From: a virus
DNA length: 64,000 nucleotides
Virus record (IMG/VR): IMGVR_UViG_3300031963_000013
Strand: one strand, 5' to 3'
Shown: positions 21,786-47,319 of the stretch, piece by piece
Numbering within the stretch: position 1 is the stretch's first letter
Layout: every line of letters starts with the position of its first letter
Position numbers and translations under genes: made by a program
The notes under the pieces: generated by a model
The model's database searches: none
What the model saw: the letters and a program-made list of their open reading frames with translations, nothing else
Told to the model about the DNA's origin: nothing

Positions 21786-21817
21786 CTAGTAAATTAACGC
21801 TATTGCGTGCCACTACA

Positions 21818-21825
21818 TATTTATA
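21818..21825 (+). promoter_or_regulatory. Putative late promoter TATTTATA
   Basis: 17 nt before phoH ATG 21843. Confidence 0.6.
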
Positions 21826-21842
21826 GGAAACACAGTTGTAAG

Positions 21843-25433: not shown

Positions 25434-25736
25434 ATGGCAAGACTAAAATTTAAACAGATACTTTCAAACCTTCACTACGATGAAGTTAACGATCAACTGA
25501 TATTGAGCGGATCAAAAGTGCCAACTGCTTTACAGAATTGGGACAACGCTTCAGGTTCTTGGGAAGACGCTCTTGGAACGTGGGACGGCAGCAGAGCGAA
25601 CATACCGGACTTCGTAATATACGGATCTACGTTTGTCACATCGAGCACATACACAACCGGATCGATCACAATAAACGGAGTAGACACGTTTGGTGATAGT
25701 GGAAGCTTCGATACTGTAGATTTAGGAGAATACTAA
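25434..25736 (+). CDS. Small virion-associated protein
   Basis: SGS/TGS-rich; ends DLGEY. Confidence 0.6.
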   Translation: MARLKFKQILSNLHYDEVNDQLILSGSKVPTALQNWDNASGSWEDALGTWDGSRANIPDFVIYGSTFVTSSTYTTGSITINGVDTFGDSGSFDTVDLGEY

Positions 25737-25744
25737 TATTTATT
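25737..25744 (+). promoter_or_regulatory. Putative late promoter TATTTATT
   Basis: Intergenic, before ATG 25767. Confidence 0.55.
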
Positions 25745-25766
25745 TACAAGATATAACACAAAAAAA

Positions 25767-28700
25767 ATGTCATCACTTACAGGACAAAACATAAAAGACA
25801 CTTACCAATCACTACTAAAAGTAGGCGATAACGGTCAAGTAACAAGCGTAGCTAAAGGAGTTACCGATGGATTAGGTAATTCAACCGGCCTATATCTCCA
25901 AAACGATGGAGTTCTATTGAGTGGATCCGTTAGCGTGTCTGGAAGTTTAAACGCGTCGGCGTCCTACGCACTCACAGCTTCATACGCATTGAACGGTGGC
26001 GGCGGAGGCGGCGGAACACCCGGTGGTTCGAATACACAGATACAGTTTAATAGTGCAAATACTTTTGCAGGAACTGGATCTTTTACTTTTAACTACACAA
26101 GTCAAAGCTTACAGCAAGGCTTAACTGTTACGGCTAAAGGACAGTATTCACACGCTGAAGGTCAGCAAACGGTAGCAGTAGGAGATTATTCACACGCAGA
26201 AGGTAATACTACAACAGCAATAGGAGGTTGGTCACACGCAGAAGGATTTGTAACAATAGCAGTAGGAGGCTATTCTCACGCAGAAGGATCCTTCACAACA
26301 GCAATAGGAATCGGTTCACACGCTGAAGGTACTAATACAACAGCAATAGGAAATGGATCACACGCTGAAGGATTTGTAACAACAGCAGCAGGATTTGCAT
26401 CACACGCAGAAGGTGAGCGGACAACAGCAGTAGGTGACTACTCACACGCTATCGGTGGATACGTCGTAGCAATAGGCAACGTTTCACACGCAGAAGGAAG
26501 CAATACAACATCAGTTGGAAACAGCTCTCATGCTGAAGGTAATACTACAATAGCAGTAGGTGACTATTCACACGCAGAAGGTAGACAGACAACAGCAATA
26601 GGAGTCGGTTCACACGCAGAAGGTGGAAGTACGACAGCAATAGGAGGTGGATCCCACACAGAAGGTCAGTTTACTATAGCAATAGGAGGCTACTCGCATG
26701 CCGAAGGTGGTCTTACAATAGCAGACGCTTTATCAGGCTACTTCGGTATACAAGGCTACTCACATGCCGAAGGTTACTTAACTGTAACATCCGGATCTAT
26801 AGCTCACGCTGAAGGATATCAAACAACTGCGATAGGGAATATGTCCCACGCTGAAGGCGGCCTTACAATAGCAATAGGAGACTATTCACACGCAGAAGGT
26901 CTAAGTACAACAGCAGTAGGAAATAGCTCACACGCAGAAGGTCAAAATACAACAGCAGTTGGTTTAGCATCCCACGCTGAAGGTGACCAAACAACAGCAA
27001 TAGGAGGTGGATCCCACACAGAAGGTCAGTTTACTATAGCAATAGGAGGCTACTCGCATGCTGAAGGTAGTAATACAACAGCAGTTGGTTTAGCATCACA
27101 CGCCGAAGGAAGCAATACAACATCAGTTGGAAACAACTCTCATGCTGAAGGTGGTCTTACAATAGCAATTGGACTTCAATCACATGCTGAAGGTCGGTTT
27201 ACAACAGCAATAGGAGGCTATTCTCACGCAGAAGGTTCTAATACAACAGCAGTAGGAACCCACTCACACGCTGAAGGTAGTAATACACAAGCAATTGGTG
27301 CAGATTCACATGCAGAAGGCGGCTTTACAATAGCAGAGGCACTCACAAGCTATGGTGGTATACAAGGCTACTCACATGCTGAAGGTTACCAGACAGTGAC
27401 GTCAGGCTCGATGGCTCATGCTGAAGGATATCAAACAACTGCGATAGGGAATATGTCCCACGCAGAAGGTCAAAGCACGACTGCAGTAGGACAACAATCA
27501 CACGCAGAAGGATTTATAACAACAGCAATAGGAGACAGCTCACACGCAGAAGGTCAAGGTACAAGAGCGGTAGGACAACAATCACATGCAGAAGGTTCTA
27601 GTACAACAGCGGTAGGAAACAATACACACACCGAAGGTGACCAAACAACAGCAATAGGAGGTGGATCCCACACAGAAGGTCAGTTTACTATAGCAATAGG
27701 AGGCTACTCGCATGCTGAAGGTGGTCTTACAGTAGCAAATGCTGTTTCTGGTTATAATACGTTATTTGACGGATTTGGTACAATTCAAGGCTACTCACAC
27801 GCTGAAGGATTCAAGACAGTAACATCAGGATCAGCAGCACACGCTGAAGGTTACCGTACAACGGCTTTAGGCAATTTATCCCACGCTGAAGGTTCACTTA
27901 CGAAAGCAACAGGAGATGTTTCACACGCTGAAGGTAATAATACAACAGCTATAGGCACAGGTTCACACGCAGAAGGTCAAAGCACAACAGCGGTAGGACG
28001 AGGATCGCACGCAGAAGGAATTGGTACAATAGCAGTAGGAGACTATTCTCATGCTGAAGGTACTCAAACAACAGCAATAGGATATGTATCACACGCAGAA
28101 GGTAACAGGACGACAGCAGTAGGAGACTATTCTCATGCTGAAGGATTTGTAACGATGGCAATAGGAGGCTACTCACACACCGAAGGGTTTACTACAACAG
28201 CAATAGGAGATTGGTCACACGCAGAAGGTGTAGCAACAACAGCAGTAGGAGTTTACTCACATGCAGAAGGTGAATTTACAACAGCAATAGGAACTGGCTC
28301 ACACGCAGAAGGATTTGTAACAATAGCAGTGCAACGCAATTCCCACGCTGAAGGTAGTGGTACAATAGCATTAGGAGGCTATTCTCATGCTGAAGGTTCT
28401 CAAACAACAGCAATAGGAACCCACTCACACGCTGAAGGTGAACGCACAATAGCATTAGGCCAATCATCACACGCAGAAGGTGCAAGTACAGTAGCTTCTG
28501 GCTCTTACCAACTAGCTATAGGCGGATATAACACTCAGGGAGATGATAAATCGGCTTTCATAATTGGCGCTGGAAGTATACTGACCAGAGCAGACGCTCT
28601 TAAAGTACAAGTATTTAATAGCAGTGGATTACAAAACGTAGGCACGCTTGCAACAAGCTCAGTAGTGCTACCTCAAGTATCACAATCTCTTAACTTTGCA

Positions 28701-28784
28701 GACGATACTGCAGCCGCAGCTGCTGGTGTTCCGCTAGGAGGATTGTATCACACAACAGGTACCATAAAGATAAGATTGACATAA
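25767..28784 (+). CDS. Fibre/adhesin with YadA-head-like 14-aa repeats
   Basis: About 54 copies of SHAEGxxTxAxGxx; N-terminal GGSNTQIQFN; C-terminal ADDTAAAAAGVPLGGLY. Confidence 0.8.
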   Translation: MSSLTGQNIKDTYQSLLKVGDNGQVTSVAKGVTDGLGNSTGLYLQNDGVLLSGSVSVSGSLNASASYALTASYALNGGGGGGGTPGGSNTQIQFNSANTFAGTGSFTFNYTSQSLQQGLTVTAKGQYSHAEGQQTVAVGDYSHAEGNTTTAIGGWSHAEGFVTIAVGGYSHAEGSFTTAIGIGSHAEGTNTTAIGNGSHAEGFVTTAAGFASHAEGERTTAVGDYSHAIGGYVVAIGNVSHAEGSNTTSVGNSSHAEGNTTIAVGDYSHAEGRQTTAIGVGSHAEGGSTTAIGGGSHTEGQFTIAIGGYSHAEGGLTIADALSGYFGIQGYSHAEGYLTVTSGSIAHAEGYQTTAIGNMSHAEGGLTIAIGDYSHAEGLSTTAVGNSSHAEGQNTTAVGLASHAEGDQTTAIGGGSHTEGQFTIAIGGYSHAEGSNTTAVGLASHAEGSNTTSVGNNSHAEGGLTIAIGLQSHAEGRFTTAIGGYSHAEGSNTTAVGTHSHAEGSNTQAIGADSHAEGGFTIAEALTSYGGIQGYSHAEGYQTVTSGSMAHAEGYQTTAIGNMSHAEGQSTTAVGQQSHAEGFITTAIGDSSHAEGQGTRAVGQQSHAEGSSTTAVGNNTHTEGDQTTAIGGGSHTEGQFTIAIGGYSHAEGGLTVANAVSGYNTLFDGFGTIQGYSHAEGFKTVTSGSAAHAEGYRTTALGNLSHAEGSLTKATGDVSHAEGNNTTAIGTGSHAEGQSTTAVGRGSHAEGIGTIAVGDYSHAEGTQTTAIGYVSHAEGNRTTAVGDYSHAEGFVTMAIGGYSHTEGFTTTAIGDWSHAEGVATTAVGVYSHAEGEFTTAIGTGSHAEGFVTIAVQRNSHAEGSGTIALGGYSHAEGSQTTAIGTHSHAEGERTIALGQSSHAEGASTVASGSYQLAIGGYNTQGDDKSAFIIGAGSILTRADALKVQVFNSSGLQNVGTLATSSVVLPQVSQSLNFADDTAAAAAGVPLGGLYHTTGTIKIRLT
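26148..28481 (+). repeat. Degenerate 42-bp coding tandem repeat with higher-order duplications
   Basis: TCACACGC(A/T)GAAGG core every 42 nt; an exact 68-bp block occurs at 26634, 26994 and 27648. Confidence 0.9.
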
Positions 28785-28788
28785 ACAA

Positions 28789-28808
28789 AAATAATTGTTA
28801 TATTAATA
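28789..28808 (+). promoter_or_regulatory. Putative second-class promoter AAATAATTGTTATATTAATA
   Basis: 18/20 match to 8701-8720; directly upstream of the glycosyltransferase pair. Confidence 0.5.
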
Positions 28809-28811
28809 GCT

Positions 28812-29933
28812 ATGAAAGTTTTAGTTATATTCCCTGACAGCATTTCTACGCCTACAGGAGGCCTTGGTGTGCAATTTAAGAACATACACTCTAGGTTAAA
28901 AAACAAGATAGATTTTTACGTGGCAGGTTACCCAGACGGCCCAAACGGGGTTGATAATTACGTAGGGGTTTACCACCCTATACCGTCAATAAAACACGGA
29001 TCTGTTAACACTTTGTTGGGCCACACTATATACCTGGCAGAAGCTTTAAAGTTTCCAAAACCTGATGTAGTTCACGCGTACGATTGGTCCACTTACTTTG
29101 CTGGGGTTTACTTAGCACAAATACACAACGTACCGTTGCTTTTATCAATGCAACTTTCAGCAAACGCGATGGTCTCTGCTGGAATTACAAACTGTTACGA
29201 CTTCAATACAGTAGACGGTTACTGGTTGCACAAAGCTCACGTAGAGACTGAATGGTTTGGTCTGCAAAAAGCAGATAAAATTATAAACGTTTCTAAAGGG
29301 TACGCAAAGTATTTCCCTCAGTTCTCCAATAAAACTACGATCATACCAAACGGAATCGATCTAAAAGATTGGCAACCCACAGACAAAGTCAAATTACCAG
29401 GAGATAGAAAACACAAGATCGTCTACATAGGTCGTTTTTCCTTAATGAAATCAACAGACGTTTTACTTGACGCAGAAATACCAGAAGACGTAGATCTAAT
29501 ATTTGTTGGATCTTACAATGGAGGAGATCATGCGTGTGTATCCAAACTAGAAAAAACCATCGGAAATAAACCGGGGTTTCACTATTACGGTCCCGTGTAC
29601 GAACAAGACAAAGTAAATTTACTGCATTCAGCCGACGCAGTCATAATGCCCAGCAAACACGAACCCTTCGGTATCGTAGCGTTGGAGGCCTTAGCGTCTA
29701 AAAACGTATTAATAGCTTCCAGAGTAGACGGGTTGGGGGATTTTTTGAATGACGATAATAGCATCAACTGCGGATTAACAGCAGAAGACATGTCAGCAGC
29801 TATGCACAAATTCACACAATTAAGCGATTTAGAGAGGGAAAACATGATTGAAAACGGTCTTAAGACGTGCGAACAGTACAAATGGGACGAAATAGCCGAA
29901 GAATATTACGAAGTTTATAAATCTATGCTATGA
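28812..29933 (+). CDS. GT-B glycosyltransferase, GT4 family
   Basis: GGLG, PDVVHAYDW, IPNGID, YIGR, MPSKHEPFGIVALEALAS and SRVDGL. Confidence 0.92.
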   Translation: MKVLVIFPDSISTPTGGLGVQFKNIHSRLKNKIDFYVAGYPDGPNGVDNYVGVYHPIPSIKHGSVNTLLGHTIYLAEALKFPKPDVVHAYDWSTYFAGVYLAQIHNVPLLLSMQLSANAMVSAGITNCYDFNTVDGYWLHKAHVETEWFGLQKADKIINVSKGYAKYFPQFSNKTTIIPNGIDLKDWQPTDKVKLPGDRKHKIVYIGRFSLMKSTDVLLDAEIPEDVDLIFVGSYNGGDHACVSKLEKTIGNKPGFHYYGPVYEQDKVNLLHSADAVIMPSKHEPFGIVALEALASKNVLIASRVDGLGDFLNDDNSINCGLTAEDMSAAMHKFTQLSDLERENMIENGLKTCEQYKWDEIAEEYYEVYKSML

Positions 29934-30976
29934 AAGTAAAAGTAAGTTACGTTACCCAAAACCCGACTACATTAGGTTCACCAACGATAGCTGTCGCAGA
30001 TTCACCTTACGAAAAAATACTTGGAGATTTGACAGATCTGTCTGATAACACGTCTTACAAAATAGAGTTAAACAAACAGAACAACTTTACTTATTTTGGT
30101 CCAAAACAGTGGTTTGGTCATTGGGATGTAAAATTACACAATCCGTTTGGAAAACAGATACACTCAGAGACCTACGATGCGACTGGTAAAACTGTCTTCA
30201 TCAAGATAGACGCATCAGCGCTGGGAGACAATCTGGCTTGGATAGACTACGTGGATCAGTTTAGAGTCAAACACAATTGCAACGTTGTATGTTCGACTTT
30301 TTTTAACGAACTGTTTATAGACTCGTACCCAAAGATAATGTTTGTAAAACCAAACACTAGAATAGATAATGTCTACGCGCAGTATTACGTAGGAACAAAC
30401 AACCATTTAAATCGTGTGTACCAACCATCTTTGTATTTAGATAACCCTTTACAAAAGATAGCATCCGATATATTGGGATTGAAATACCGAGAGTCCGTAG
30501 CTAAGATAAAGTTACCCACTCATTTACAGAAGAAAAAACAAGTTACCATAAGCGAATACGCCTCTTTAAGAGTCAAAGAGTGGAATGTAGTGGGTGGCTG
30601 GCAGTCTATAGTAGATCTGTTTAACAGTTTAGGTTTTGAAGTGATAGTAATAAGCAAAGAATACTCTTACTTACAAAACGTAACTAACAAATCAGGAGAT
30701 CTTCCATTAGAGGATAGGATTAAGGACATATACCAATCCAAGTATCACGTAGGACTGTCAAGCGGTCTATCGTGGTTAGCCACAAGCTGTTGTACGCACA
30801 CATTTTTGATATCAGACTTTACTCCACCGTATCACGAAATAAAATCAAACGTAACTAGAATATACAACGAAACACACCCAAGAGACTCAATAACCTACTC
30901 AGAAGTGAAAAATCCAGTAACCATTGAGCACGTCCTAGACAAAATAAGACTAAAATTAAACAAAGACGGTTATTAA
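29930..30976 (+). CDS. Aah/TibC-like (autotransporter heptosyltransferase-like) protein O-glycosyltransferase
   Basis: GKTVFI.IDASALGDNLAW..YVDQFR.KHNC.VVCSTF..ELF...YP.I.F and VGLSSGLSWLA resemble the BAHT/GT9-like family. Confidence 0.7.
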   Translation: MKVKVSYVTQNPTTLGSPTIAVADSPYEKILGDLTDLSDNTSYKIELNKQNNFTYFGPKQWFGHWDVKLHNPFGKQIHSETYDATGKTVFIKIDASALGDNLAWIDYVDQFRVKHNCNVVCSTFFNELFIDSYPKIMFVKPNTRIDNVYAQYYVGTNNHLNRVYQPSLYLDNPLQKIASDILGLKYRESVAKIKLPTHLQKKKQVTISEYASLRVKEWNVVGGWQSIVDLFNSLGFEVIVISKEYSYLQNVTNKSGDLPLEDRIKDIYQSKYHVGLSSGLSWLATSCCTHTFLISDFTPPYHEIKSNVTRIYNETHPRDSITYSEVKNPVTIEHVLDKIRLKLNKDGY

Positions 30977-30979
30977 TGG

Positions 30980-30987
30980 TATTTATT
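30980..30987 (+). promoter_or_regulatory. Putative late promoter TATTTATT
   Basis: Before ATG 31018. Confidence 0.55.
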
Positions 30988-31017
30988 AGAGAATTATTGA
31001 CACTTAAAACAAAAAAT

Positions 31018-31224
31018 ATGTGGGAAAAAATCAATAAACTATCTGTAAAAGTAGTTGTAGCTGTCATCATTGTACTAGCAAGTTTTGGTTTACTGTACTT
31101 TTTATTATTCAAACAAGTACCTGAACACAACAAACAACTTTTAGATGTAATGGTCGGTGCCACTGTTGGCAGCTCGATGACAGCTGTATTGGGATGGTTA
31201 TTTACGCAATCTAAGACGGGATAG
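31018..31224 (+). CDS. Small 2-TM membrane protein (holin-like)
   Basis: 68 aa with two hydrophobic helices. Confidence 0.5.
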   Translation: MWEKINKLSVKVVVAVIIVLASFGLLYFLLFKQVPEHNKQLLDVMVGATVGSSMTAVLGWLFTQSKTG

Positions 31225-31238
31225 TACGCAATATTACA

Positions 31239-31246
31239 TATTTATT
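31239..31246 (+). promoter_or_regulatory. Putative late promoter TATTTATT followed by a palindromic leader
   Basis: Followed by palindromes AGCTATATAGCT (31250-31261) and TTAGTATATACTAA (31274-31287). Confidence 0.55.
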
Positions 31247-31301
31247 ATAAGCTATATAGCTGCGCCAATAAATTTAGTATATACTAATCCCCTATTGACA
31301 C

Positions 31302-35111: not shown

Positions 35112-35121
35112 AACATTAAAT

Positions 35122-35991: not shown

Positions 35992-35993
35992 TT

Positions 35994-36794: not shown

Positions 36795-36803
36795 AATTCA
36801 CCG

Positions 36804-36811
36804 TATTTATA
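36804..36811 (+). promoter_or_regulatory. Putative late promoter TATTTATA followed by a leader hairpin
   Basis: Hairpin at 36822-36845 lies between the motif and ATG 36854. Confidence 0.55.
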
Positions 36812-36853
36812 TCAAACCCCCGTCTCAGGGACAGTGAACTGAGGCAGTACTAA

Positions 36854-39800: not shown

Positions 39801-42800
39801 CCAAAATAAACAGTGTAAGTGAAGATTTTTATTGGAACTTCTTAGATGATACAGACGGTGAAAATGACATTACAAGAAAACTATCTGTAACATTTGCAGA
39901 CGGTACTCACACAGACGCTACTACCCTTATCTTTAAAGGTAGCTCAATGGGAGTATTGGAAGGAGGAACCATAACAATCTCCGGTAGCTTAACCGTTACC
40001 ACAGCCGCAGGATACGGTTACTTACACGATCCAATCAATCCAGAAGTGTTTAAAAGGTTTGATTGGGTTAACCAAAATATAACTCTATCTCCAAACACTA
40101 ACAACTATATTTACATCAACAGCAACGGCGTGTTGTCAGCTGCGGGCTCAACACCAAACTTTGCTCAAAACATTATATTAGGAAGGGTAGTTACAAACGA
40201 TACTGGAGTTGAGTTAATAGATCAAAGCCCATGGAACGCAGAACACACAGCAAATAGGTTATCTAAATTCAATAGAGAAGCCTTAGGACCTGTGTTTGCT
40301 GAAGGATCTATTGTTACCGAAAACGTTACGCCGTTTAAATTAGACGTGACACAGGGTAGCTACTACTTCTCAGAAAACAACTTCCTACCAGCAGGCACAT
40401 CATCAATCAATCTAACACAATATTACCAAAGCGCTTCAGTTTGGGCTAGATACACTTCATCCATAGTGCCAAACAATGTGTACGCTTCAAGTAGTGCTTT
40501 AGTAGCAATGTCTGCTTCAGCGTACACTAAACACACAGTGTACCTTGTGGGAGATGGTGTAGATGAAGAATACTTCTTAGTAATTAACAACAACCAATAC
40601 AACACTCTAGTAGAAACTGAAGGCGCAGACCTACCAACCATACCAACGTACTTTAACGACGGCGTAGTGCCGTTAGCCGCAGTGTACGTCCAATCAGGCT
40701 CCGCTAACATAACGCAAATACAAGACATTAGACCGATTATTGGTTTTAGAGCTGCTGGTGTAAACGCATCTGCTGTACACGGAAACTTATTAGGTCTAAA
40801 CGCAGACGATCACACGCAGTATCTTCTTGTTGATGGTGGCAGACAAATGAGCGGTGATTTGGGATTAGGAGGAAACGATCTCTACAACGCTAACCTCATA
40901 TCGGGATCAAATGTCGAAGCCCCTACAGCAACTATCGCAAACATAAATGCCACTTCGATTACTGGCTCATTGCTTGGAAATGCGACTTCTGCAACAACAG
41001 CGTCATACATTCTACAAGCAGTAAGCGCATCGTTTGCATCAACTGCCAGCTTTGTACTTAACGCTGTAAGCAGTAGCTTTGCCTCTACATCATCGATAGC
41101 CACTAGCGCTTCGTTTGCAACCAGTGCTTCTCAGGCACAAAATGCCTTAACTGCTTCTTACATTTTAGCATCGGGTGTTGCTGGTTTGAATCTTACACAA
41201 ATAGCAACAGGCAGTGTAACCGCTTCTGTATCTCCGTCTCAATTTAGTGTAGTAAGTGGAAGCGTAACTGAGTTTGTAGTAACTGGAACAGGTACACGTA
41301 TAGGAAGTGTAATTACAGACACACATACTATAACCGGTTCTGTTAATATAAGCGGAAGCACAACAATATCCGGAAGTTTAATAGCCTTAAATACAAACAC
41401 GACTAATAGTTTAATTGTTGGAGGAGCATACACATCAAGCGCAACTAACCAATATCATACTATATACAATCCGTCAATAGCAACAAGAAATGCTTCTGGA
41501 GACAATGTTTATTCTTTACAAATTAATCCACAATACACTGTTAATAATAGCCAAACTGTATACGGTCTATTAGTTGCTCCAAACGTAACGGTAAATTCAG
41601 CTCATACTTTTGTTAATCAAAGGATTGCTCATACTGGTGCTGGTGCACAAAACATGGCGATTAAGGGTTTAGAGATTGATATCAATGCGGGTGGAGGTAA
41701 CCCAGGCAACAAAATAGGCATTGATATTGCCGGATTTACTCAATTTAATCCAGGATCTACTGTTTCTGCTGGAATTAGAATGACTGACATTAACGTGCCT
41801 TATTTGTTAATGATCAACAACGCCAATAACCAGGCCTGCAGTACAGTAATGAGAAACAACGCGGGTAGCACACTTGTACAATCATTATCAGGTACTACTG
41901 GAGGAAATTCTGCTGATATATATACTACTGGAACAACAGTTCCTTTAAGATTGGGAGTTAATTCTTTAATTTATTTCCAAATATTTAACTCAAGCGGAAA
42001 TGTTGGAATTAATACAAACACCGACGCAGGCTTCCGCTTAGACGTTTCTGGATCTACTCGCCTAAATGGAGATACAGTAGTAACTGGCTCCTTCACCGTA
42101 GTTACAGGAAGCGCAAGAGAGCTCCAAGTTAGAAATGTAGGAGTTGATATTGGAAGTATTATAACAGATACTCACACTGTAACCGGTTCTTTCAACATAT
42201 CAGGTTCGTTAAATGCGCCCATCATAACCGGCTCTCTGTTTGGAACTGCTAGCTGGGCTAACAATACGTTAACTGCATCCTTTGTACAAAATGCACAGAG
42301 CTCATCTTTTGCGTCAACTGCTTCGTTTGTACAGAACGCTCAATCAGCATCTTACGTTTTACAAGCAGTATCCGCTTCGTTTGCAACAACTGCTAGCTTC
42401 GTACTAAACGCAGTAAGCAGTAGCTTTGCCTCTACATCATCGATAGCAACTAGCGCTTCGTTTGCATCTACATCATCTATAGCAACAAGTGCATCATTTG
42501 CAACAACAGCTTCATTTGCAGTATCAGCTTCATGGGCACCAAGTACAGCAACATCAATAACAGTAGCAGACGAAGGATCTACTCAAGGTACTGCAACTTA
42601 CTTTAATTTTACTGGTGCTGGGGTAACAGCCACAGTATCATCTAACACAGCATCTATAAGCATACCTGGCGGCGCTGGTGCTACTTTCCCATTCACAGGA
42701 AGTGCAATCATAAGTGGTAGCTTGATTGTAACAGGATCTACAATATCAACTTTAGGATTTACAGGATCATTAGAAGGAACAGCTAGTTGGGCAAACAATG

Positions 42801-43507
42801 CTATTAGTGCATCGTACGTTTTACAAGCAGTGAGTTCTTCGTTTGCATCAACCGCATCGTTTGTACAGAATGCACAAACAGCTTCTTATGTACTACAGGC
42901 AGTAAGTGCTTCGTTTGCTACAAGCGCTTCCCAAGCTCAAAACGCAGTAACAGCATCTTACGTGCTACAATCGGTAAGTTCATCTTTTGCATCAACTGCT
43001 TCGTTTGTACAATTAGCACAAAGCGCATCTTATATTTTACAAGCAGTAAGCAGCAGCTTTGCCTCTACATCATCGATAGCAACAAGCTCTTCTTTTGCGT
43101 CAACAGCTTCATTTGTACAGAACGCTCAATCAGCTTCGTACGTATTACAAGCAGTGAGTTCTTCTTTTGCATCTACGTCTTCAATAGCGATAAGTGCTTC
43201 ATTCGCAACAACAGCTTCATTCGCAGTCTCAGCTTCATGGGCACCAAGCACTGGTGGAAGTGGACTAAGGACCAAAGCAGGTTCAGTAGCAAACACTTCA
43301 TTTACAGGTAACCCAAGAAAAGCAACAGTAACGTTTGGCGCAGCATTTACCGATACAAACTACGCAATAACAGTAACAGGTGAAGATGCTAGATCGTGGA
43401 CTATAGAATCAAAATTAGCTGGTAGCTTTGTGATAAACGCAAACAGCAACCCAGCCTTAGCAGGAACAACTTATTGGATAGCAACAGCGTACGGTGAAAC
43501 AACTTAA
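36854..43507 (+). CDS. Giant Ser/Thr/Ala-rich fibre/spike protein (2217 aa) with two pectin-lyase-like beta-helix regions
   Basis: ELGELHDV; two beta-helix starts (IKTAVESITDA..NTYTVRVYPGIY and FTSISASV..ITDS..NRYVIEVGPGQF); HGNLLGL.ADDH.QYL; long SASFASTASF repeats. Confidence 0.75.
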   Translation: MANEFVARNGLIALDNSTITGSLGVSGGITGSLFGTASWSTNALTASFLSGSVENAVSASFATTASFAISASWAPTGNATITVGDEGTTQGTATYFNFIGAGVTATVSSDTASINIPGGAGSTFPFTGSAIISGSLIVTGSIFVTQSHISTVDYVDFNINAATPTHVEGRIHWDIDRKTLELDTDVNNFMINVGHMNVLRGRNTNPFTLTKGTVVYINGNSGQFATFATASWEDDPRSAYTIGVIAQDVNSNNFGYAITDGEITGINTNAFAPATLLYLSSSGQYTSVVPTAPNHTVRLGQVVVQSTSGILQVKVDNGYELGELHDVRDTTTTSSYGDLLVKSGSIWATGKQLTGSYGLTGSLNITGSLRLSTPTYNTSSINVLTYNTGSDEVEYSTINDLTFTKNIVTVGLQGSRDVNYNVIKTAVESITDAAENNTYTVRVYPGIYIEDTITVPSWVAVKGDSSISTVVSASNPSQSVFVMSDQSMVIDMQVQGSTGPGASAIVYSSATTPQRNAIAYAENIRFGTNYTNAKVIGSGSSGNCILQCSNVKYGGYTDNTLQKSFDVGFHVTSGSSGGIGRMQLRNVTSTNGGVAGTDNNQIFALADAPGCTFIVNGCLLTRATGTARGTGFKVYNGGQLRLTGVNFQRWINGIWAPQTGSAPSIDAIALNFENCTTDVLIEHTGSTGKVQGTDNFLKTQIALNAPLYEVGQDPRKITVGKKGADFTSISASVAYITDSAEDNRYVIEVGPGQFTENTIDLTGKPYVSIVGSNIQTTQIFPSASNQHIIKMGINNEVSFLSLANAGSGYSALYIDDVGDFAQAHKISINNCDRGITINASTTDTQFYGEYIDINGAFTYGAYVSSSGGASTYCNLENYYLFPSASATIGNYAVGPSSSLNLYVGSFIGDGTTNSTAVKLEDGATLEAGALDVQGWDYGYVVPNVGNPPLFRVVGSMIHDSTTYDFDIQKVGTQGRYQGISDHTKINSVSEDFYWNFLDDTDGENDITRKLSVTFADGTHTDATTLIFKGSSMGVLEGGTITISGSLTVTTAAGYGYLHDPINPEVFKRFDWVNQNITLSPNTNNYIYINSNGVLSAAGSTPNFAQNIILGRVVTNDTGVELIDQSPWNAEHTANRLSKFNREALGPVFAEGSIVTENVTPFKLDVTQGSYYFSENNFLPAGTSSINLTQYYQSASVWARYTSSIVPNNVYASSSALVAMSASAYTKHTVYLVGDGVDEEYFLVINNNQYNTLVETEGADLPTIPTYFNDGVVPLAAVYVQSGSANITQIQDIRPIIGFRAAGVNASAVHGNLLGLNADDHTQYLLVDGGRQMSGDLGLGGNDLYNANLISGSNVEAPTATIANINATSITGSLLGNATSATTASYILQAVSASFASTASFVLNAVSSSFASTSSIATSASFATSASQAQNALTASYILASGVAGLNLTQIATGSVTASVSPSQFSVVSGSVTEFVVTGTGTRIGSVITDTHTITGSVNISGSTTISGSLIALNTNTTNSLIVGGAYTSSATNQYHTIYNPSIATRNASGDNVYSLQINPQYTVNNSQTVYGLLVAPNVTVNSAHTFVNQRIAHTGAGAQNMAIKGLEIDINAGGGNPGNKIGIDIAGFTQFNPGSTVSAGIRMTDINVPYLLMINNANNQACSTVMRNNAGSTLVQSLSGTTGGNSADIYTTGTTVPLRLGVNSLIYFQIFNSSGNVGINTNTDAGFRLDVSGSTRLNGDTVVTGSFTVVTGSARELQVRNVGVDIGSIITDTHTVTGSFNISGSLNAPIITGSLFGTASWANNTLTASFVQNAQSSSFASTASFVQNAQSASYVLQAVSASFATTASFVLNAVSSSFASTSSIATSASFASTSSIATSASFATTASFAVSASWAPSTATSITVADEGSTQGTATYFNFTGAGVTATVSSNTASISIPGGAGATFPFTGSAIISGSLIVTGSTISTLGFTGSLEGTASWANNAISASYVLQAVSSSFASTASFVQNAQTASYVLQAVSASFATSASQAQNAVTASYVLQSVSSSFASTASFVQLAQSASYILQAVSSSFASTSSIATSSSFASTASFVQNAQSASYVLQAVSSSFASTSSIAISASFATTASFAVSASWAPSTGGSGLRTKAGSVANTSFTGNPRKATVTFGAAFTDTNYAITVTGEDARSWTIESKLAGSFVINANSNPALAGTTYWIATAYGETT
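42230..43250 (+). repeat. Low-complexity Ser/Ala coding repeats (SSSFASTASF / AQSASYVLQAV)
   Basis: Many imperfect copies; similar units at about 40960-41160 and in the 1269-aa gene. Confidence 0.8.
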
Positions 43508-43514
43508 AAAATTA

Positions 43515-43522
43515 TATTTATA
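43515..43522 (+). promoter_or_regulatory. Putative late promoter TATTTATA
   Basis: 7 nt before ATG 43530. Confidence 0.6.
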
Positions 43523-43529
43523 ATAGATT

Positions 43530-44138
43530 ATGCCTATATTTTATTTAGATAGTGGAAGTATAGATACGCTTGAAGTATCAAGCAGCTTACTTGTATCAGG
43601 TTCGCTTGTTATTAGCGGTAGTATGACGTCAACTTCCGGATTAACAGGAAGTTTGTTTGGTACTTCTAGTTGGGCAATAAACGCTACATCAGCTTCGTTT
43701 GCTGTATCAGCTTCGTGGGCTCCTACCCAAGCAAGCAGCGGTTTTCCATTTGCGGGAATAGCGGTTATTACAGGTTCGATAGTATTAACTTCAGGTTCTG
43801 GTTTTCCATCACTGTTAGCTTCTGAAACACTAGCAGCAGGTGATCTAGTAAACATACACTCAGGCGGAGTTAGAAAAGCTTCGAGTTCTGACATAACGAG
43901 ACAAGCGCACGGTTTCGTAACTCAATCCGCAGTTGCAACCAATCCGGTCGTTGTGTTTTACTCTGGGTTGATTACAAATCGCACTTCTTTAACCGCAGGA
44001 TCTAGATATTTTTTAAGCACAGATGGAGGCATACTCAGTACGCCCGCGGGTAGTCCTAATAACATATATCAAGAGGTAGGCGTCGCGATTAGCAGTAATG
44101 CTCTATTAGTTAACTTTGGACCAGTGGTAATATTATAA
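43530..44138 (+). CDS. Virion protein with an SGS-rich N-terminus and a capsid-cement-like C-terminal domain
   Basis: ASETLAAGDLVNI...AHGFV...LTAGSRYFLS..GG...QEVGVA. Confidence 0.55.
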   Translation: MPIFYLDSGSIDTLEVSSSLLVSGSLVISGSMTSTSGLTGSLFGTSSWAINATSASFAVSASWAPTQASSGFPFAGIAVITGSIVLTSGSGFPSLLASETLAAGDLVNIHSGGVRKASSSDITRQAHGFVTQSAVATNPVVVFYSGLITNRTSLTAGSRYFLSTDGGILSTPAGSPNNIYQEVGVAISSNALLVNFGPVVIL

Positions 44139-44147
44139 AATACTGTT

Positions 44148-45290
44148 ATGGCATTTCCTTTATACATAAATTCGACAGTAGACAACTACTACATAAAAAG
44201 ATCATCAAACACTGATGTAGTACAAGCGAGTCACTTTCCAGTATCAGCATCTAGTAACCTCTATTTTACAAATTTACCCGATCCGATATATTACATAACA
44301 AGCTCAGTTACGCAAAGTATAGCCCAACCGTTGCCCGGTACGACCACTGTGTTTCTTTCAACTGTTAAAAATTTTAGAAACACTCAAGTGCATTCTCCGT
44401 TCTATTTATTGGGTACTCGTACAGCAGTAGCTGCAAGCGGTCCAACTATAGATTATGGTACAAACAGTGCAACAAAAGCTATAAATATAGCAATTGCTTC
44501 TACTGCTACTGCTTTAACTAGGGGAATAGGTGGAACAGGAGATGGTTTGTTTAGAAGTGTTGCGGCGGGTTTAGCGGTTGCAAACACAACTTACCCAACA
44601 ACAATACAAGGTGTTACGTACAACGATAGCGTTTTATTCCCTACCAATGTAACAGACTTTTTTATAGGCTTAGCATCAGAAAATACAGATAGAGTAACAA
44701 TAAACTCAGGAAGTATTTATCTGAATAGATTTATAGGTTATAGTAGTAGTCTAGCTCCGGTTACATCAAGTAGACCTTTAAATATAAGCGGAAGCAGCAT
44801 TGCGCAAATACCGGCCGGTAATTTAATATCAAGCTCTGTTTTATTCGATACTGCAAGTTTGTGGCAATCGCAGAGTTTAGCTACAGACGTTGCTAATACT
44901 AGTAATACTGCTTACGTAACCGTGTTTACCACTACGGGATTGACAAACGGTAAAAGATATCTAGCTAACTTATATTTAATAGGAAGATCGGCAGCCGCAG
45001 CAACGGGGTTTAGGATGCGTGTCATTACAGGCAGCAATTACTTGGGAAGCCTGTTTACGCCCACGTCCACCACCGCGTACGCAATTCAAAATTCAGCAGA
45101 CGGTAACAATATAACAAGCATTACAGCCGGTACCTGGCCAACGTTAAACACAAACTTTTTGGTCTACGGAGAGTATTCGTTTGTAAAAACAGCCGCAGGT
45201 GACCCTCAGGTACAAATACTAAGCGAAACAGGCGGTACAGCTGTTACAGCCGGTTCGGGTAGCGTATTGTTTTACAGAGTAATAGAATAG
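44148..45290 (+). CDS. Ser/Thr-rich beta-rich virion protein
   Basis: Composition and position in the fibre cluster. Confidence 0.6.
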   Translation: MAFPLYINSTVDNYYIKRSSNTDVVQASHFPVSASSNLYFTNLPDPIYYITSSVTQSIAQPLPGTTTVFLSTVKNFRNTQVHSPFYLLGTRTAVAASGPTIDYGTNSATKAINIAIASTATALTRGIGGTGDGLFRSVAAGLAVANTTYPTTIQGVTYNDSVLFPTNVTDFFIGLASENTDRVTINSGSIYLNRFIGYSSSLAPVTSSRPLNISGSSIAQIPAGNLISSSVLFDTASLWQSQSLATDVANTSNTAYVTVFTTTGLTNGKRYLANLYLIGRSAAAATGFRMRVITGSNYLGSLFTPTSTTAYAIQNSADGNNITSITAGTWPTLNTNFLVYGEYSFVKTAAGDPQVQILSETGGTAVTAGSGSVLFYRVIE

Positions 45291-45294
45291 TATT

Positions 45295-45864
45295 ATGAGT
45301 CAATTTTCAAATAGCATCATATCGCCGATAAGCATTTTATCCGGATCGTGGACAACGTCGGTATCCGGAGGGTTTTCTATGCAGCTACCGAGCGGAAGCA
45401 TACCAACGTATCTTGCTGCTAACACCCCTTGGAGATATTCGATGCTATCAACTGCATTTACAACTACAAATACAGCTCAGCAAACTATAACCGGTTTACA
45501 GATAACTTTAGAAAACAACAAAAGGTATTTAATATACGGCAACCTGTTGGTATCAACTATCAGATCGGCTAACGGACCGAGGGTGGGAGTAACAGGCGCA
45601 AACTTAGCTCTTAACATATATAACATAGAAAATCCGACATCAACCACCGCCGTGCAACTCGGCCTAAATGTCACAGCCACAGCGGGCTCAGGCCCTGGAA
45701 ACAGCTTAACGAACTACTACTACGTACCCATAAGAGCGCTAGTAAGGGCGGCTCCCACAGGTGCACCCACTTGGGCGCCAACGCTATCATCGGAGGGAGC
45801 AGCTGGTGGCGCAACCGATGTTGGAATGGGTCCCTACAGCCACGTCTATTACAGAGAGTACTAA
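45295..45864 (+). CDS. Beta-rich virion protein resembling the C-terminal domain of the upstream gene
   Basis: TGL...LENNKRYLIY versus TGLTNGKRYLAN; both end with similar Y/F-Y-R-x-x motifs. Confidence 0.6.
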   Translation: MSQFSNSIISPISILSGSWTTSVSGGFSMQLPSGSIPTYLAANTPWRYSMLSTAFTTTNTAQQTITGLQITLENNKRYLIYGNLLVSTIRSANGPRVGVTGANLALNIYNIENPTSTTAVQLGLNVTATAGSGPGNSLTNYYYVPIRALVRAAPTGAPTWAPTLSSEGAAGGATDVGMGPYSHVYYREY

Positions 45865-45872
45865 TATTTATA
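45865..45872 (+). promoter_or_regulatory. Putative late promoter TATTTATA
   Basis: Before ATG 45887. Confidence 0.6.
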
Positions 45873-45886
45873 TAAAATAAGCAATC

Positions 45887-46162
45887 ATGGGATTAATCAT
45901 ATGCAAGTCGTGCTTCGATTCAAAAATAGCAAGCTGGAAAAAACCGTTTGACGAAAACGCAGGCGAGTTAGAATCGATTCCAGACTACAACGAATACGCT
46001 CAACACGCGCACATTTACCAGGTAACAGACATCGCGTCTAAACTCGACAACGGTGAAATGGTAGAAATACTGTGTGCTGTGTGTAAAATAACACACGTTG
46101 CAAAAGACGCGAACGGAGTAATTAAAGTAAAATACACCGGAGGCAACTGGGAAACATTTTAA
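45887..46162 (+). CDS. Small Cys/His protein, possibly metal-binding
   Basis: CKSC...HAH...CAVC..H. Confidence 0.6.
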   Translation: MGLIICKSCFDSKIASWKKPFDENAGELESIPDYNEYAQHAHIYQVTDIASKLDNGEMVEILCAVCKITHVAKDANGVIKVKYTGGNWETF

Positions 46163-46185
46163 CACAACAAACTAACACACAGTAA

Positions 46186-47319
46186 ATGGCACTAAATTTT
46201 CCTTCTAACCCGGTTCTCGATCAAATCTACGTAGGTCCTTTGGGCCAAAAGTGGAAGTGGAACGGCACCGCGTGGATCTCTTTTAACGAGATTGCAACAG
46301 TGCCAACCGCATCGCTGTCCCTGGGTGGCTCTGGGTCGTTTTCGGGCTCTTTCAGTGGCTCGGGAGCAGATTTGCGTAATATACCATCGTCCGCGATAGT
46401 AGGTCTCAATCTGTCCCAGATCTCTTCTGGGAGCGTTAGTGCATCTATGTCGCAAGAAGGTTTATTGGTGAACACTAGAGTTGTGGCTACGTCTTTCACA
46501 GGTTCGTTGTTTGGAACAGCTTCTTATAGTTTGCTAAATCTTCAACAGGTAACGGATAATGGAACGACTACAACAAATAACATAACAGTATCAAACGCAA
46601 ACGCTTCTTTTAACGTAGAAAACACAACACCTGAAATATTTGCAGGTTTTGAAGCTGATAATTCAGAAGCAAGAATAAACATAGGCGTTGCTTCGGGCAA
46701 TGTTTTACGTTTAAAAGGCGGTTTAATTACAGGGGATAGAATTATAAACTTTCCCAACAAAAGCGGCACACTTCCGTTATCAGTAATACTAGAAAACGTA
46801 GAGTATACTGCCGATGATACAGGGAGTATAGTGCTTGGCGCTGTAAAAAACGCAGCAACAGCGTCTTACATTTTAGCCTCAGGGGTGGCAGGTTTAAACC
46901 TGACTCAGATAACAACCGGCAGCGTAAGCGCGAGTGTAAGCGTATCTACCTTCTCTGTTACAAGCGGAAGCGTAACCGAATTCGTAGTTACTGGAACTGG
47001 TGTAACTATTGGAAACGCAGCAACAGATAGACACACCGTAACAGGTTCATTAAATTCTCCTAACATTACTGGATCTTTGTTCGGTACTGCTAGTTGGGCG
47101 GTATCTGCATCTTGGGCACCAGGAGGTGGAGGAGGAGGTGTATCTTCGATAACAATAGCAGATGAAGGAACTTCTCAAGGCACCGCAACATTTATTAACT
47201 TTACAGGAGCGGGAGTCACTGCTACAGTATCATCGAACACAGCATCTATTAACATCCCTGGTGGAGGTAGTAGTGCTAGTCCAACCTTAAATTTATTTAA
47301 TTACTTTAACTTTTTCTAA
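46186..47319 (+). CDS. Ser/Thr-rich fibre-family protein built from modules shared with the larger fibres
   Basis: MALNFPSNP...WKWNGTAW, LQQVTDNG, GLNLTQI and ADEGTSQGTAT modules. Confidence 0.7.
   Translation: MALNFPSNPVLDQIYVGPLGQKWKWNGTAWISFNEIATVPTASLSLGGSGSFSGSFSGSGADLRNIPSSAIVGLNLSQISSGSVSASMSQEGLLVNTRVVATSFTGSLFGTASYSLLNLQQVTDNGTTTTNNITVSNANASFNVENTTPEIFAGFEADNSEARINIGVASGNVLRLKGGLITGDRIINFPNKSGTLPLSVILENVEYTADDTGSIVLGAVKNAATASYILASGVAGLNLTQITTGSVSASVSVSTFSVTSGSVTEFVVTGTGVTIGNAATDRHTVTGSLNSPNITGSLFGTASWAVSASWAPGGGGGGVSSITIADEGTSQGTATFINFTGAGVTATVSSNTASINIPGGGSSASPTLNLFNYFNFF

Follow-up and report, generated by a model that had tools for sequence, protein, structure and literature searches.

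A TibC/Aah-like mini-BAHT and a GT4 glycosyltransferase as a candidate fibre-modification cassette beside a YadA-like tail fibre gene of an uncultured myovirus

Background

The closest described systems are the TibC-TibA and Aah-AIDA-I pairs of E. coli (PDB 4RAP and 4RB4), in which a soluble cytoplasmic enzyme, consisting of a GT-B catalytic domain and an N-terminal beta-barrel, is encoded beside a long repeat-protein gene of strand-turn-strand units. In TibC, D110 is the catalytic base, T226, K230, R286 and W305 bind the sugar, and P300 determines stereoselectivity (PMC4358343). In bacteria, the genes of this (BAHT) family adjoin those of their autotransporter substrates, and BimC is encoded beside the YadA-type BimA (PMC11499645). 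BimC of Burkholderia retains the iron finger and binds BimA for polar targeting, glycosylation of BimA not being established. The LPS heptosyltransferases WaaC and WaaF (GT9) belong to the same GT-B superfamily and also use ADP-heptose, but lack the N-terminal beta-barrel. In phages, the glycosyltransferases encoded by mycobacteriophages are presumed to decorate structural proteins, or have been shown to do so (Freeman et al. 2023, as cited in PMC12619734). These enzymes belong to other families and act on the C-terminal ends of the capsid and tail-tube proteins in phages of Actinobacteria; no BAHT, heptose or YadA-like fibre is known to be involved.

Genome and gene order

The DNA analysed, a stretch of 64,000 nt (hereafter the window), comes from a large uncultured tailed phage, a myovirus. 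A contig of 172.7 kb encodes a GT4 protein identical to that of the window, and the closest cultured relative is Flavobacterium phage immuto (TerL identity, 56%), which lacks a BAHT gene. The gene order proposed from the sequence alone was confirmed: two transferase genes on the same strand overlap by 4 nt in the ORF list, a YadA-repeat adhesin-like ORF lies 5' of them, and about 16 kb of fibre genes (31302-47319), S/T/G-rich ORFs with weak tail-fibre PHROG matches, follow on the 3' side (Table 1). The best promoter match of the region is located immediately 5' of the GT4 start codon; the total count of sigma-70-like sites in the region was not above that in shuffled sequences.

Table 1. Features of the transferase and fibre region of the window
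Feature	Position	Strand	Evidence and remarks
Small S/T/G-rich ORF, 100 aa	25434..25736	+	Directly 5' of YadA-like fibre; [ST]GS 4 versus 0.2 expected; no match in Pfam and PHROG searches
YadA-head-repeat tail fibre, 1005 aa, proposed substrate	25767..28784	+	PF05658 YadA_head, E 1.8e-84; phrog_25468, 2.7e-162; weak tail-fibre PHROGs
Best sigma-70-like promoter match of region	28776..28804	+	TTGACA-17-TATATT with TG, 11/12; consensus match only
GT4-family glycosyltransferase (GT-B, retaining-type), 373 aa	28812..29933	+	Glycos_transf_1, 7.2e-21; Glyco_transf_4, 6.1e-12
Mini-BAHT, TibC/Aah-like O-heptosyltransferase homologue, 348 aa	29930..30976	+	TIGR04414, E 6.3e-48; PDB TibC 4rap, E 5.5e-23 (HMMER)
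82-aa ORF, two hydrophobic stretches	30976..31224	+	1-nt overlap with BAHT stop codon; BrkB match sub-threshold only; not conserved beside BAHT at other loci
Long fibre protein, 1269 aa	31302..35111	+	Collagen-like G-x-y stretch; weak Collagen and tail-fibre PHROG matches; repeated [ST]GSLFGTASWA modules
Two paralogous virion structural proteins, 289 and 266 aa	35122..36794	+	phrog_10356, 1.3e-10 and 3.5e-25; no [ST]GS
Giant fibre protein, 2217 aa	36854..43507	+	[ST]GS and SAS enriched; N-terminal region matches BAHT-adjacent fibres in L004 and L007; no match in Pfam and PHROG searches
Four S/T/G-rich fibre-module ORFs (202, 380, 189, 377 aa) and 91-aa ORF	43530..47319	+	Modules in common with 31302-35111; no match in Pfam search

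Identity of the mini-BAHT

The product of 29930-30976, suggested on first reading to be an Aah/TibC-like enzyme, proved by HMM, PDB and structure searches to be a member of the TibC/Aah family, clustering with TibC, which modifies protein, rather than with the GT9 enzymes of LPS or with enzymes that modify DNA. The TIGR04414 match covers residues 51-307 and, at 163.6 bits, does not reach the NCBIfam equivalog cutoff of 200. The AF2 model (pLDDT 96) starts with strands (residues 2-93) and continues with two alpha/beta lobes, thus containing the TibC fold of a flattened N-terminal beta-barrel and a GT-B catalytic domain, and Foldseek aligned it to TibC 4rap with a TMq of 0.85 (E 4e-26), barrel included, at 21-22% identity, versus TM scores of 0.40-0.56 for the next-best matches, WaaC and WaaF. 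Pfam GT9 gave no match in this protein; some homologues match PF01075 weakly.

The active site is conserved. Specifically, TibC D110 corresponds to D100 in the HMMER alignment, and T226, K230, R286 and W305 to S212, K216, R263 and W282, so that the base Asp and the Ser/Thr, Lys, Arg and Trp contacts of TibC and Aah are all represented, and P300 is replaced by S277, the Aah-like state. None of these six residues varies among 31 homologues, whose identity goes down to 40%.

Unlike TibC, the phage-encoded protein lacks both the beta-hairpin thumb (tip F265, V266), TibC residues 265-273 facing a 9-residue gap, and the Cys4 iron finger (C339, C342, C358, C370), as the alignment stops at TibC residue 335 and the remaining tail has no CxxC. 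Both elements are also missing in all 18 phage relatives examined. The 18 proteins of the phage clade have 59-68 residues after the SGLSW motif, with 0-2 Cys there; nearly all cellular homologues (L042-L107) whose SGLSW motif could be placed have a tail of 84-139 residues after it, with at least four Cys and a CxxC, and two fused ORFs among them have 365. Having lost thumb and finger, the mini-BAHT is, on this alignment, probably neither dodecameric nor iron-binding. The losses and the sub-cutoff TIGR04414 score count against a role in fibre glycosylation. No signal peptide or membrane segment was seen by eye in the translations of the mini-BAHT and the GT4.

The adjacent YadA-like fibre

The YadA head repeats of 25767-28784 fall into 14 stretches and comprise 53 HxEG units, 48 of them at an exact spacing of 14 residues, with the consensus SHAEGxxTTAxGxx. 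No Pfam match to a C-terminal membrane-anchor (translocator) domain was found, and the annotation of its homologues from phages immuto and P8625 is tail spike or tail fibre. The gene belongs to a phage structural module, and its product is a phage fibre built on the head-repeat fold rather than an autotransporter. Characterised BAHT genes adjoin those of their repeat-protein substrates, which are AIDA-type autotransporters and form monomeric right-handed beta-helices, whereas the putative partner here is of the trimeric YadA type, a roll, and has no membrane anchor. In this respect the locus resembles BimC-BimA, where a BAHT-family gene also adjoins that of a YadA-homologous trimeric protein. 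The unlike substrate fold, and the fact that for BimC binding and targeting are documented rather than glycosylation, count against glycosylation of this fibre.

Position 9 of the repeat is Ser or Thr in 40-73% of the units of 12 fibres from BAHT-carrying contigs and in 0-30% of those of six fibres from genomes or contigs without BAHT, a pattern that was picked post hoc among 14 positions in fibres that are not phylogenetically independent, three of the BAHT-positive fibres and one of the BAHT-negative fibres having been tested after it was first seen. The residue is mostly Thr; BAHTs mainly modify Ser.

Recurrence of the enzyme-fibre pair

We found the BAHT gene 0.3-2.6 kb 3' of a YadA-like fibre gene in the window and at ten of the 18 related loci (L004, L007, L009-L015 and L017), that is, at 11 of the 12 informative loci, those with visible upstream DNA and not of the terminase-proximal type. 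In the relatives, the pair is located next to the neck genes, ahead of the sheath, behind the tube or ahead of the terminase, and the small ORFs that flank it are not conserved from context to context. At L004 and L007, a sulfotransferase and an APS-kinase fusion occupy the slot between fibre and BAHT, with no GT4. From such comparisons, this slot looks like a variable modification cassette.

At six loci (L001-L003, L005, L006 and L008), the BAHT gene lies near the terminase, beside an FAD-oxidoreductase-like gene and not a fibre gene, an arrangement that counts against the fibre as the glycosylated protein; YadA-like fibres are still encoded in the same genomes (G001 and G002). A YadA-like fibre is encoded in all BAHT-carrying genomes for which sufficient sequence is available. 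Among six genomes without BAHT, five from IMG/VR (at least 90% complete) and immuto, such a fibre is present in G017, immuto and G011 and absent from G008, G010 and G019; its occurrence without BAHT, as in immuto and G017, likewise counts against fibre glycosylation.

The GT4 enzyme

The first transferase, initially read as a GT4, was verified as such, both GT-B halves passing the Pfam gathering scores (PF00534, 74.9 bits, cutoff 26.4; PF13439, 46.3 bits, cutoff 28.5), and H283, E284 and E292 of an EX7E-type motif are invariant in 17 homologues. The named families that it matches best comprise cell-envelope and glycogen-type enzymes, with every score far under the respective cutoff, and its PHROG class is 'moron, auxiliary metabolic gene'. 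Orthologues with 57-69% identity lie 3' of YadA-like fibres in three contexts (L230-L235); none of these six closest loci has a BAHT nearby, and none of the 18 BAHT loci has the GT4. Since the BAHT recurs beside YadA-like fibres and the GT4 orthologue does likewise without it, these comparisons point to the YadA-head-repeat fibre, and not all outward-facing virion parts, as the specific partner of the enzymes.

The idea that the BAHT primes and the GT4 extends draws some support from other phages, where a single protein combines a GT4-type with a BAHT domain, as might be expected if the two enzyme types cooperate. Such cooperation is not required, however, as the enzymes are mostly found apart, each beside a YadA-like fibre.

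The (S/T)GS signature

The sequence-only reading had also described a virion-wide (S/T)GS signature and taken it as the target of the BAHT. Compared with composition-matched shuffles, the fibres at 31302-35111 (39 versus 5.0 expected, z 16.7) and 36854-43507 (34 versus 6.9, z 10.7, with SAS at 23 versus 3.9) show a marked excess of [ST]GS, and the counts in the four fibre-module ORFs of 43530-47319 are also above expectation (6 versus 1.1 at 43530-44138, 4 versus 0.8, 2 versus 0.5, and 10 versus 1.9 at 46186-47319). The signature holds for the fibres and moderately for the sheath (5 versus 1.0, z 4.2) but is not virion-wide, with 1 versus 0.7 in the capsid and 2 versus 0.3 in the neck protein; the YadA-like fibre itself is only weakly enriched (9 versus 4.6). 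Much of the fibre enrichment is due to repeated modules, such as [ST]GSLFGTASWA, that several paralogous fibre genes share.

As a BAHT sequon, the motif failed: it is present in the fibres of all five BAHT-less phage genomes from IMG/VR (completeness 90% or more), an outcome that the same reading had named as contrary to its claim. Fibre ORFs read in G008, G010, G011 and G019 are equally enriched (z 7-15), the one from G017 falls short (z 2.3), and immuto shows enrichment in its tail spike (26 versus 5.9, z 8.7) and sheath (7 versus 1.2). Because BAHT-less relatives are equally enriched, (S/T)GS is best read as a structural motif, a feature of this fibre and sheath family, and is no enzyme marker or evidence of glycosylation. 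Since the BAHT-less relatives carry a separate glycan gene cluster (about 11 kb in the lineage), lineage-wide virion glycosylation by other enzymes may still hold.

Proposed function and alternatives

We propose, with a probability of roughly 55%, that the YadA-head-repeat fibre gene, the GT4 gene and the translationally coupled mini-BAHT gene form a fibre-modification cassette within the tail-fibre module, with which the phage sugar-coats its YadA-like fibre. We infer that, late in infection, the soluble cytoplasmic mini-BAHT would take ADP-heptose from the host and O-glycosylate Ser/Thr residues within the strand-turn-strand 14-mers of newly made fibre, before or during trimerisation, mirroring the action of TibC and Aah on TibA and AIDA-I in the cytoplasm. 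The GT4 would add a second sugar, either directly on the same fibre or onto the heptose, and the glycan-decorated fibre may differ in folding, stability, protease resistance or adhesion. L033 derives from a Sediminibacterium MAG, G030, and of 101 genomes that were sampled from its class (from the genus name, presumably Bacteroidia) 83 have GmhA. The BAHT phages searched do not encode GmhA, so that the supply of donor by the host is assumed, which counts against the proposal. A more specific and rather doubtful version is that the thumb-less, iron-free and probably non-dodecameric mini-BAHT heptosylates the position-9 Thr/Ser of SHAEGxxT[T/S]A in a trimeric beta-roll fibre and that interchangeable add-on enzymes elaborate the product, these being the GT4 here, a sulfotransferase with a PAPS-synthase-like fusion in relatives, and GT4-BAHT fusions elsewhere.

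The enzymes could instead be accessory 'moron' transferases whose target belongs to the host (LPS core, capsule or surface adhesin), blocking superinfection or preventing progeny from sticking to debris, and lie among the fibre genes only because fibre modules tolerate insertions. The family resemblances and PHROG class of the GT4, the strong promoter-like site directly 5' of it, the BAHT genes away from fibres at L001-type loci, the relatives' large glycan cluster and the normal use of host ADP-heptose for LPS would all fit. We nevertheless consider this unlikely, as the fold is specifically TibC-like, with the BAHT-specific barrel, and far from WaaC/WaaF, both enzymes recur beside one fibre type in several unrelated contexts while other neighbours change, the fibre accompanies BAHT in every sufficiently sequenced genome, and neither protein shows an export or membrane signal by eye. 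Still less credible is a virion-wide coat, in which the BAHT would prime (S/T)GS loops of fibre, sheath, capsid and neck proteins for extension by the GT4: although the motif is strongly enriched in fibres and moderately so in the sheath, other phages have fusions of GT4-type and BAHT domains, the lineage has many glycosylation genes, and mycobacteriophages provide a precedent for glycosylated virions (Freeman et al. 2023, as cited in PMC12619734), the same enrichment is found in relatives with neither BAHT nor this GT4, it resides in shared repeated modules, it is lacking in the capsid and weak in the very fibre next to the enzymes, and the two enzymes mostly occur apart.

It is also very improbable that the mini-BAHT is mainly a non-catalytic partner of the fibre, a chaperone or assembly factor comparable to BimC with BimA. 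The thumb and iron finger required for TibC activity are missing, the documented role of BimC is to bind BimA, and the gene pairing is tight; however, the base and four ADP-heptose-contact residues are invariant in the 31 homologues, which would not be expected without catalysis, and BimC binds through the iron finger that the mini-BAHT lacks.

Implications

If the position-9 version of fibre glycosylation is correct, a phage lineage would have adapted a bacterial principle of adhesin glycosylation for its own receptor-binding apparatus, and the BAHT catalytic core would be able to work without the dodecamer scaffold. Together with the glycan cluster of about 11 kb, it would constitute the first system for virion glycosylation described among relatives of the phages that infect Gram-negative Bacteroidota.

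A short TibC/Aah-type transferase

The 348-aa protein P0001 (mini-BAHT) gave no match in Pfam and PHROG searches and matched the NCBIfam model TIGR04414, "autotransporter strand-loop-strand O-heptosyltransferase" (the bacterial autotransporter heptosyltransferase family, BAHT), with an E-value of 6.3e-48 and 163.6 bits, a score below the equivalog cutoff of 200 bits. The chains 4rap and 4rb4 of TibC, the enzyme that modifies the E. coli adhesin TibA, were matched with an E-value of 5.5e-23. An AlphaFold model built with 31 homologues as input had a pLDDT of 96, and its top match in Foldseek was again TibC (TMq 0.85, E 4e-26), in an alignment spanning the N-terminal beta-barrel; the lipopolysaccharide (LPS) heptosyltransferases WaaC and WaaF ranked after it, with TM values of 0.40-0.56.

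Residue roles were taken from the TibC structure paper (PMC4358343) and transferred through a HMMER alignment. The catalytic base D110 corresponds to D100 of P0001, the beta-phosphate contacts T226 and K230 to S212 and K216, the adenine contact R286 to R263, and W305, which contacts the heptose O4, to W282. At the stereoselectivity position, P300 of TibC is replaced by S277, the state found in Aah, the enzyme that modifies AIDA-I; a Ser here tolerates both heptose epimers (PMC4358343). All six P0001 residues are invariant in the 31-sequence alignment. By HMM, fold and active-site residues, P0001 thus groups with TibC, as the sequence-only reading had proposed, and away from the LPS- and DNA-modifying enzymes with which a grouping would have spoken against that proposal. 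Both an LPS heptosyltransferase (GT9) and a DNA glycosyltransferase are ruled out as its family by the fold and HMM evidence.

P0001 differs from TibC in two structural elements. The beta-hairpin thumb of TibC is absent, residues 265-273 (including F265 and V266) facing a gap, and so is the Cys4 iron finger (C339, C342, C358 and C370): the alignment ends at TibC residue 335, and the last 35 residues of P0001 contain no Cys. Past the SGLSW motif, the chain continues for 59-68 residues in all 18 related viral proteins, with 0-2 Cys and no CxxC, whereas nearly all cellular homologues (Burkholderia, Acetobacteraceae and others) in which this motif could be located have 84-139 residues, at least four Cys and a CxxC, two fused ORFs among them having 365 residues. 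TibC requires both thumb and iron finger to assemble into a dodecamer and to be active, and its iron finger additionally tracks the TibA helix (PMC4358343). The closest match of P0001 in 185,579 species genomes was only 41% identical and lay on a 3.7-kb MAG contig, so the short form of BAHT is essentially a phage clade.

The phage and its gene order

All large ORFs of the window lie on the + strand. The terminase shares 56% identity with its counterpart in the cultured Flavobacterium phage vB_FspM_immuto (immuto, 160 kb) and 52% with that in Microcystis phage Mel-JY01, the sheath is 53% identical to that of immuto, and a 172,732-bp contig also encodes an identical GT4 protein, indicating that the window is a fragment of a large uncultured immuto-like myovirus. 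No near-identity DNA match to 28000-32000 was present among 50,697 phage records, and no tRNAs were found in the window that could hint at a host. Loci and contigs or genomes of related phages or bacteria are designated L and G, respectively.

Location of the features in the window and in related phages
Feature	Location	Strand	Remarks
Terminase large subunit	10030-11622	+	PHROG match
Portal	11627-13558	+	PHROG match
Major head protein	19960-21633	+	PHROG match
PhoH	21807-22517	+	PHROG match
Head-tail adaptor-like protein	22520-23686	+	PHROG match
YadA-like fibre	25767-28784	+	1005 aa; YadA_head E 1.8e-84
GT4	28812-29933	+	373 aa; Glycos_transf_1 7e-21, Glyco_transf_4 6e-12
P0001	29930-30976	+	348 aa; 4-nt overlap with GT4 gene
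Fibre	31302-35111		1269 aa
Tandem phrog_10356 proteins	35122-35991, 35994-36794		virion structural proteins
Tail sheath	53667-55394	+	PHROG match
Genes between fibre and BAHT	L004:7854-10004, L007:2739-4438		sulfotransferase set
GT-BAHT fusion	L228:466-2547		693 aa; G009, G014; CxxC Cys-rich tail kept
GT-BAHT fusion	L027:4750-8430		1226 aa; Mel-JY01; TibC_1st match as well
Partial BAHT-like ORF	L015:1-327		just before sheath gene
FAD/NAD-binding oxidoreductase-like gene	L001:8715-10004		429-434 aa; also L002, L003, L006; 4-nt overlap with BAHT start
Glycan-biosynthesis cluster of immuto	L294 (NC_055915.1 49172-59988)		~11 kb

The YadA-like fibre as genomic partner

The YadA-like fibre of the window carries 53 HxEG units with the consensus SHAEGxxTTAxGxx, 48 of them at an exact spacing of 14 residues; no anchor domain was reported for this protein. 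BAHT relatives at 45-64% identity were found in 18 IMG/VR loci, and ORF-level comparison placed a YadA-like fibre 0.3-2.6 kb upstream of the BAHT in 10 of them. These pairs occupy four contexts, the window's own not counted: downstream of PhoH and ahead of a neck gene (L004, L007), directly before the sheath (L009, L010), past sheath and tube and before a baseplate-region gene (L012, L013, L014, L015, L017), and upstream of the terminase region (L011). The contigs of L016 and L018 hold no upstream DNA. The small ORFs that separate the two genes or follow them were unrelated across contexts, and none was a conserved third partner. In the other six loci (L001-3, 5, 6, 8), the BAHT lies before the terminase and overlaps the FAD-oxidoreductase-like gene; the two long contigs of this type carry YadA-like fibre genes elsewhere (one in G001, four in G002). 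Among six BAHT-less genomes examined, a YadA-like fibre was present in G017, immuto and G011 and absent from G008, G010 and G019. BAHT therefore implies a YadA-like fibre and the fibre does not imply BAHT, the pattern expected of an accessory modifier of this fibre.

Two further features of these loci were seen. The contig of L015, whose BAHT follows a YadA-like fibre, bears a second, partial BAHT-like ORF, and some phages may have two BAHT copies. In L001, L002, L003 and L006, the oxidoreductase-like gene is preceded by one for a protein of 805-926 aa with no family match.

GT4 and other enzymes at the fibre

Residues H283, E284 and E292 of GT4 are invariant in 17 homologues. None of the 18 BAHT loci contains GT4, and a scan with the single protein recovered no relatives; an alignment-based scan recovered orthologues of 57-69% identity (L230-L235), each directly downstream of a YadA-like fibre, in three contexts, namely ahead of tail-completion-like genes, of the sheath or of the neck. 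These contigs, all fragments with a completeness of 9-44%, yielded no BAHT. At L004 and L007, the slot of GT4 is taken by genes for a sulfotransferase, a fusion of APS-kinase and a CTP_transf_like nucleotidyltransferase that may be a PAPS synthase, and a membrane protein of the DUF2061 family, a set suggestive of sulfation, either of the fibre or of its glycan. Other phages have proteins in which a GT1/GT4-type domain precedes the BAHT domain in a single chain. Neither GT domain of the two fusions listed is an orthologue of the window's GT4, one giving no significant match and the other 26% identity over 136 aa. The Mel-JY01 fusion is annotated as "methyltransferase FkbM", which overlooks its TibC-like domain. 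The IMG/VR contigs of L242-L245 (20-127 kb) show a further independent case of both enzyme types occurring together: a more distant GT4 (39% identity) and, 3 kb away on the other strand, a BAHT-like gene (32% identity), close to a terminase. We read GT4-type and BAHT enzymes as recurrent, non-obligate partners, and the site 3' of the YadA-like fibre as host to interchangeable modification enzymes.

The (S/T)GS motif and a possible acceptor

The gene-level observations of the sequence-only reading were correct and its BAHT call was good; its further proposal, that the BAHT primes (S/T)GS loops on outward-facing virion parts and GT4 may extend them, fared differently. Against 300 composition-preserving shuffles per protein, (S/T)GS was strongly enriched in the long fibres and moderately in the sheath (5 versus 1.0 expected), and barely in the neck protein (2 versus 0.3), and the capsid showed no enrichment (1 versus 0.7); the YadA-like fibre had 9 versus 4.6. 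Modules common to the fibre paralogues account for much of the signal. A tblastn search of the phage collection with a fibre segment gave no match, probably because the segment was masked as low-complexity, and the module GSLFGTASWA was located by a degenerate DNA pattern. It occurred in at least 119 viral stretches, and BAHT was present in two of the 19 long contigs bearing it and in none of the five at least 90% complete. Fibre ORFs read in four of these five BAHT-less genomes had z values of 7-15, and the one read in G017 a z of 2.3. Immuto, with no BAHT and no close GT4, showed 26 versus 5.9 (z 8.7) in its YadA-like tail spike, 8 versus 1.5 in a neighbouring 211-aa protein and 7 versus 1.2 in its sheath, two of the latter aligning with occurrences of the motif in the window sheath. 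The motif thus does not co-vary with the transferases, relatives without them keep the enrichment, and a virion-wide (S/T)GS sequon is not supported. An important caveat to this verdict is that other glycosyltransferases are present in all these BAHT-less genomes and may or may not glycosylate (S/T)GS sites.

The glycan-biosynthesis cluster of immuto lies far from its fibre genes and encodes five GTs, two WecE-type aminotransferases, a nucleotide-sugar epimerase, a methyltransferase and a "pilin glycosylation protein". In G008, G010, G011, G017, G002 and G014, matches to GT1 and GT2 families occur at like spacing, gene content having been read for the immuto cluster only. The BAHT phage G002 shares the 485-aa and 439-aa GT pair of immuto, and G014 has a 482-aa homologue of the larger GT. 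Within the window's fibre cluster, the paralogous phrog_10356 proteins contain no (S/T)GS and weakly match an alpha-L-arabinofuranosidase B catalytic domain (33.8 and 24.6 bits; Pfam cutoff 25), and the 1269-aa fibre has a short collagen-like G-x-y run near its N-terminus (residues ~104-127, GPQGPQGPSGSQGQQGPSGS).

As for a possible acceptor, Ser/Thr were tallied per position in 14-mer units anchored on HxEG. In nine BAHT-adjacent fibres, 40-73% of units had Ser/Thr at position 9, against 8-30% in five fibres whose genomes lack BAHT or whose contigs are GT4-only, a pattern picked post hoc among 14 positions in fibres that share ancestry. Four later checks all came out as predicted: 54% in G001, 56% and 43% in G002, and 0% (5 units) in BAHT-less G011. 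BAHTs mainly modify Ser, and position 9 of the window fibre is mostly Thr. Judged from these repeats, position 9 may serve as an acceptor site, as a lead only.

Donor sugar

GmhA was looked for in five contigs of BAHT phages, of which three are 78-82% complete, and was found in none, and ADP-heptose would therefore need to come from the host. Of 101 genomes drawn from the class to which G030 belongs, a Sediminibacterium MAG itself encoding a BAHT homologue, 83 carried GmhA-like genes; 57 were above the curated cutoff, and the tally takes in the unpublished genome G126, a sub-cutoff positive on which the conclusion does not depend. Supply by the host is plausible, provided that it is a member of Bacteroidia.

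Implications

We consider it somewhat better than an even chance, at roughly 55%, that the minimal BAHT modifies the YadA-head-repeat fibre, with GT4 as a second, separable modifier. BimC-BimA of Burkholderia is a bacterial pair of a BAHT and a YadA-type protein, with a role in binding (PMC11499645). Virion glycosylation is documented in mycobacteriophages (Freeman 2023, as cited in PMC12619734), and among the papers searched none ties TibC or BAHT enzymes to phages. Richness of phage fibres in Ser/Thr-Gly-Ser should not be taken as a signature of glycosylation. If the mini-BAHT heptosylates the YadA-like fibre, protein O-heptosylation would reach beyond bacterial virulence adhesins to the receptor-binding fibres of phages, and virion glycosylation would be known outside actinobacteriophages. 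The phage protein would then be a natural minimal BAHT with which to ask whether dodecamer and iron finger serve catalysis or merely the handling of AIDA-type substrates, and, with its 14-residue repeat, would offer a compact enzyme-substrate pair for glyco-engineering.
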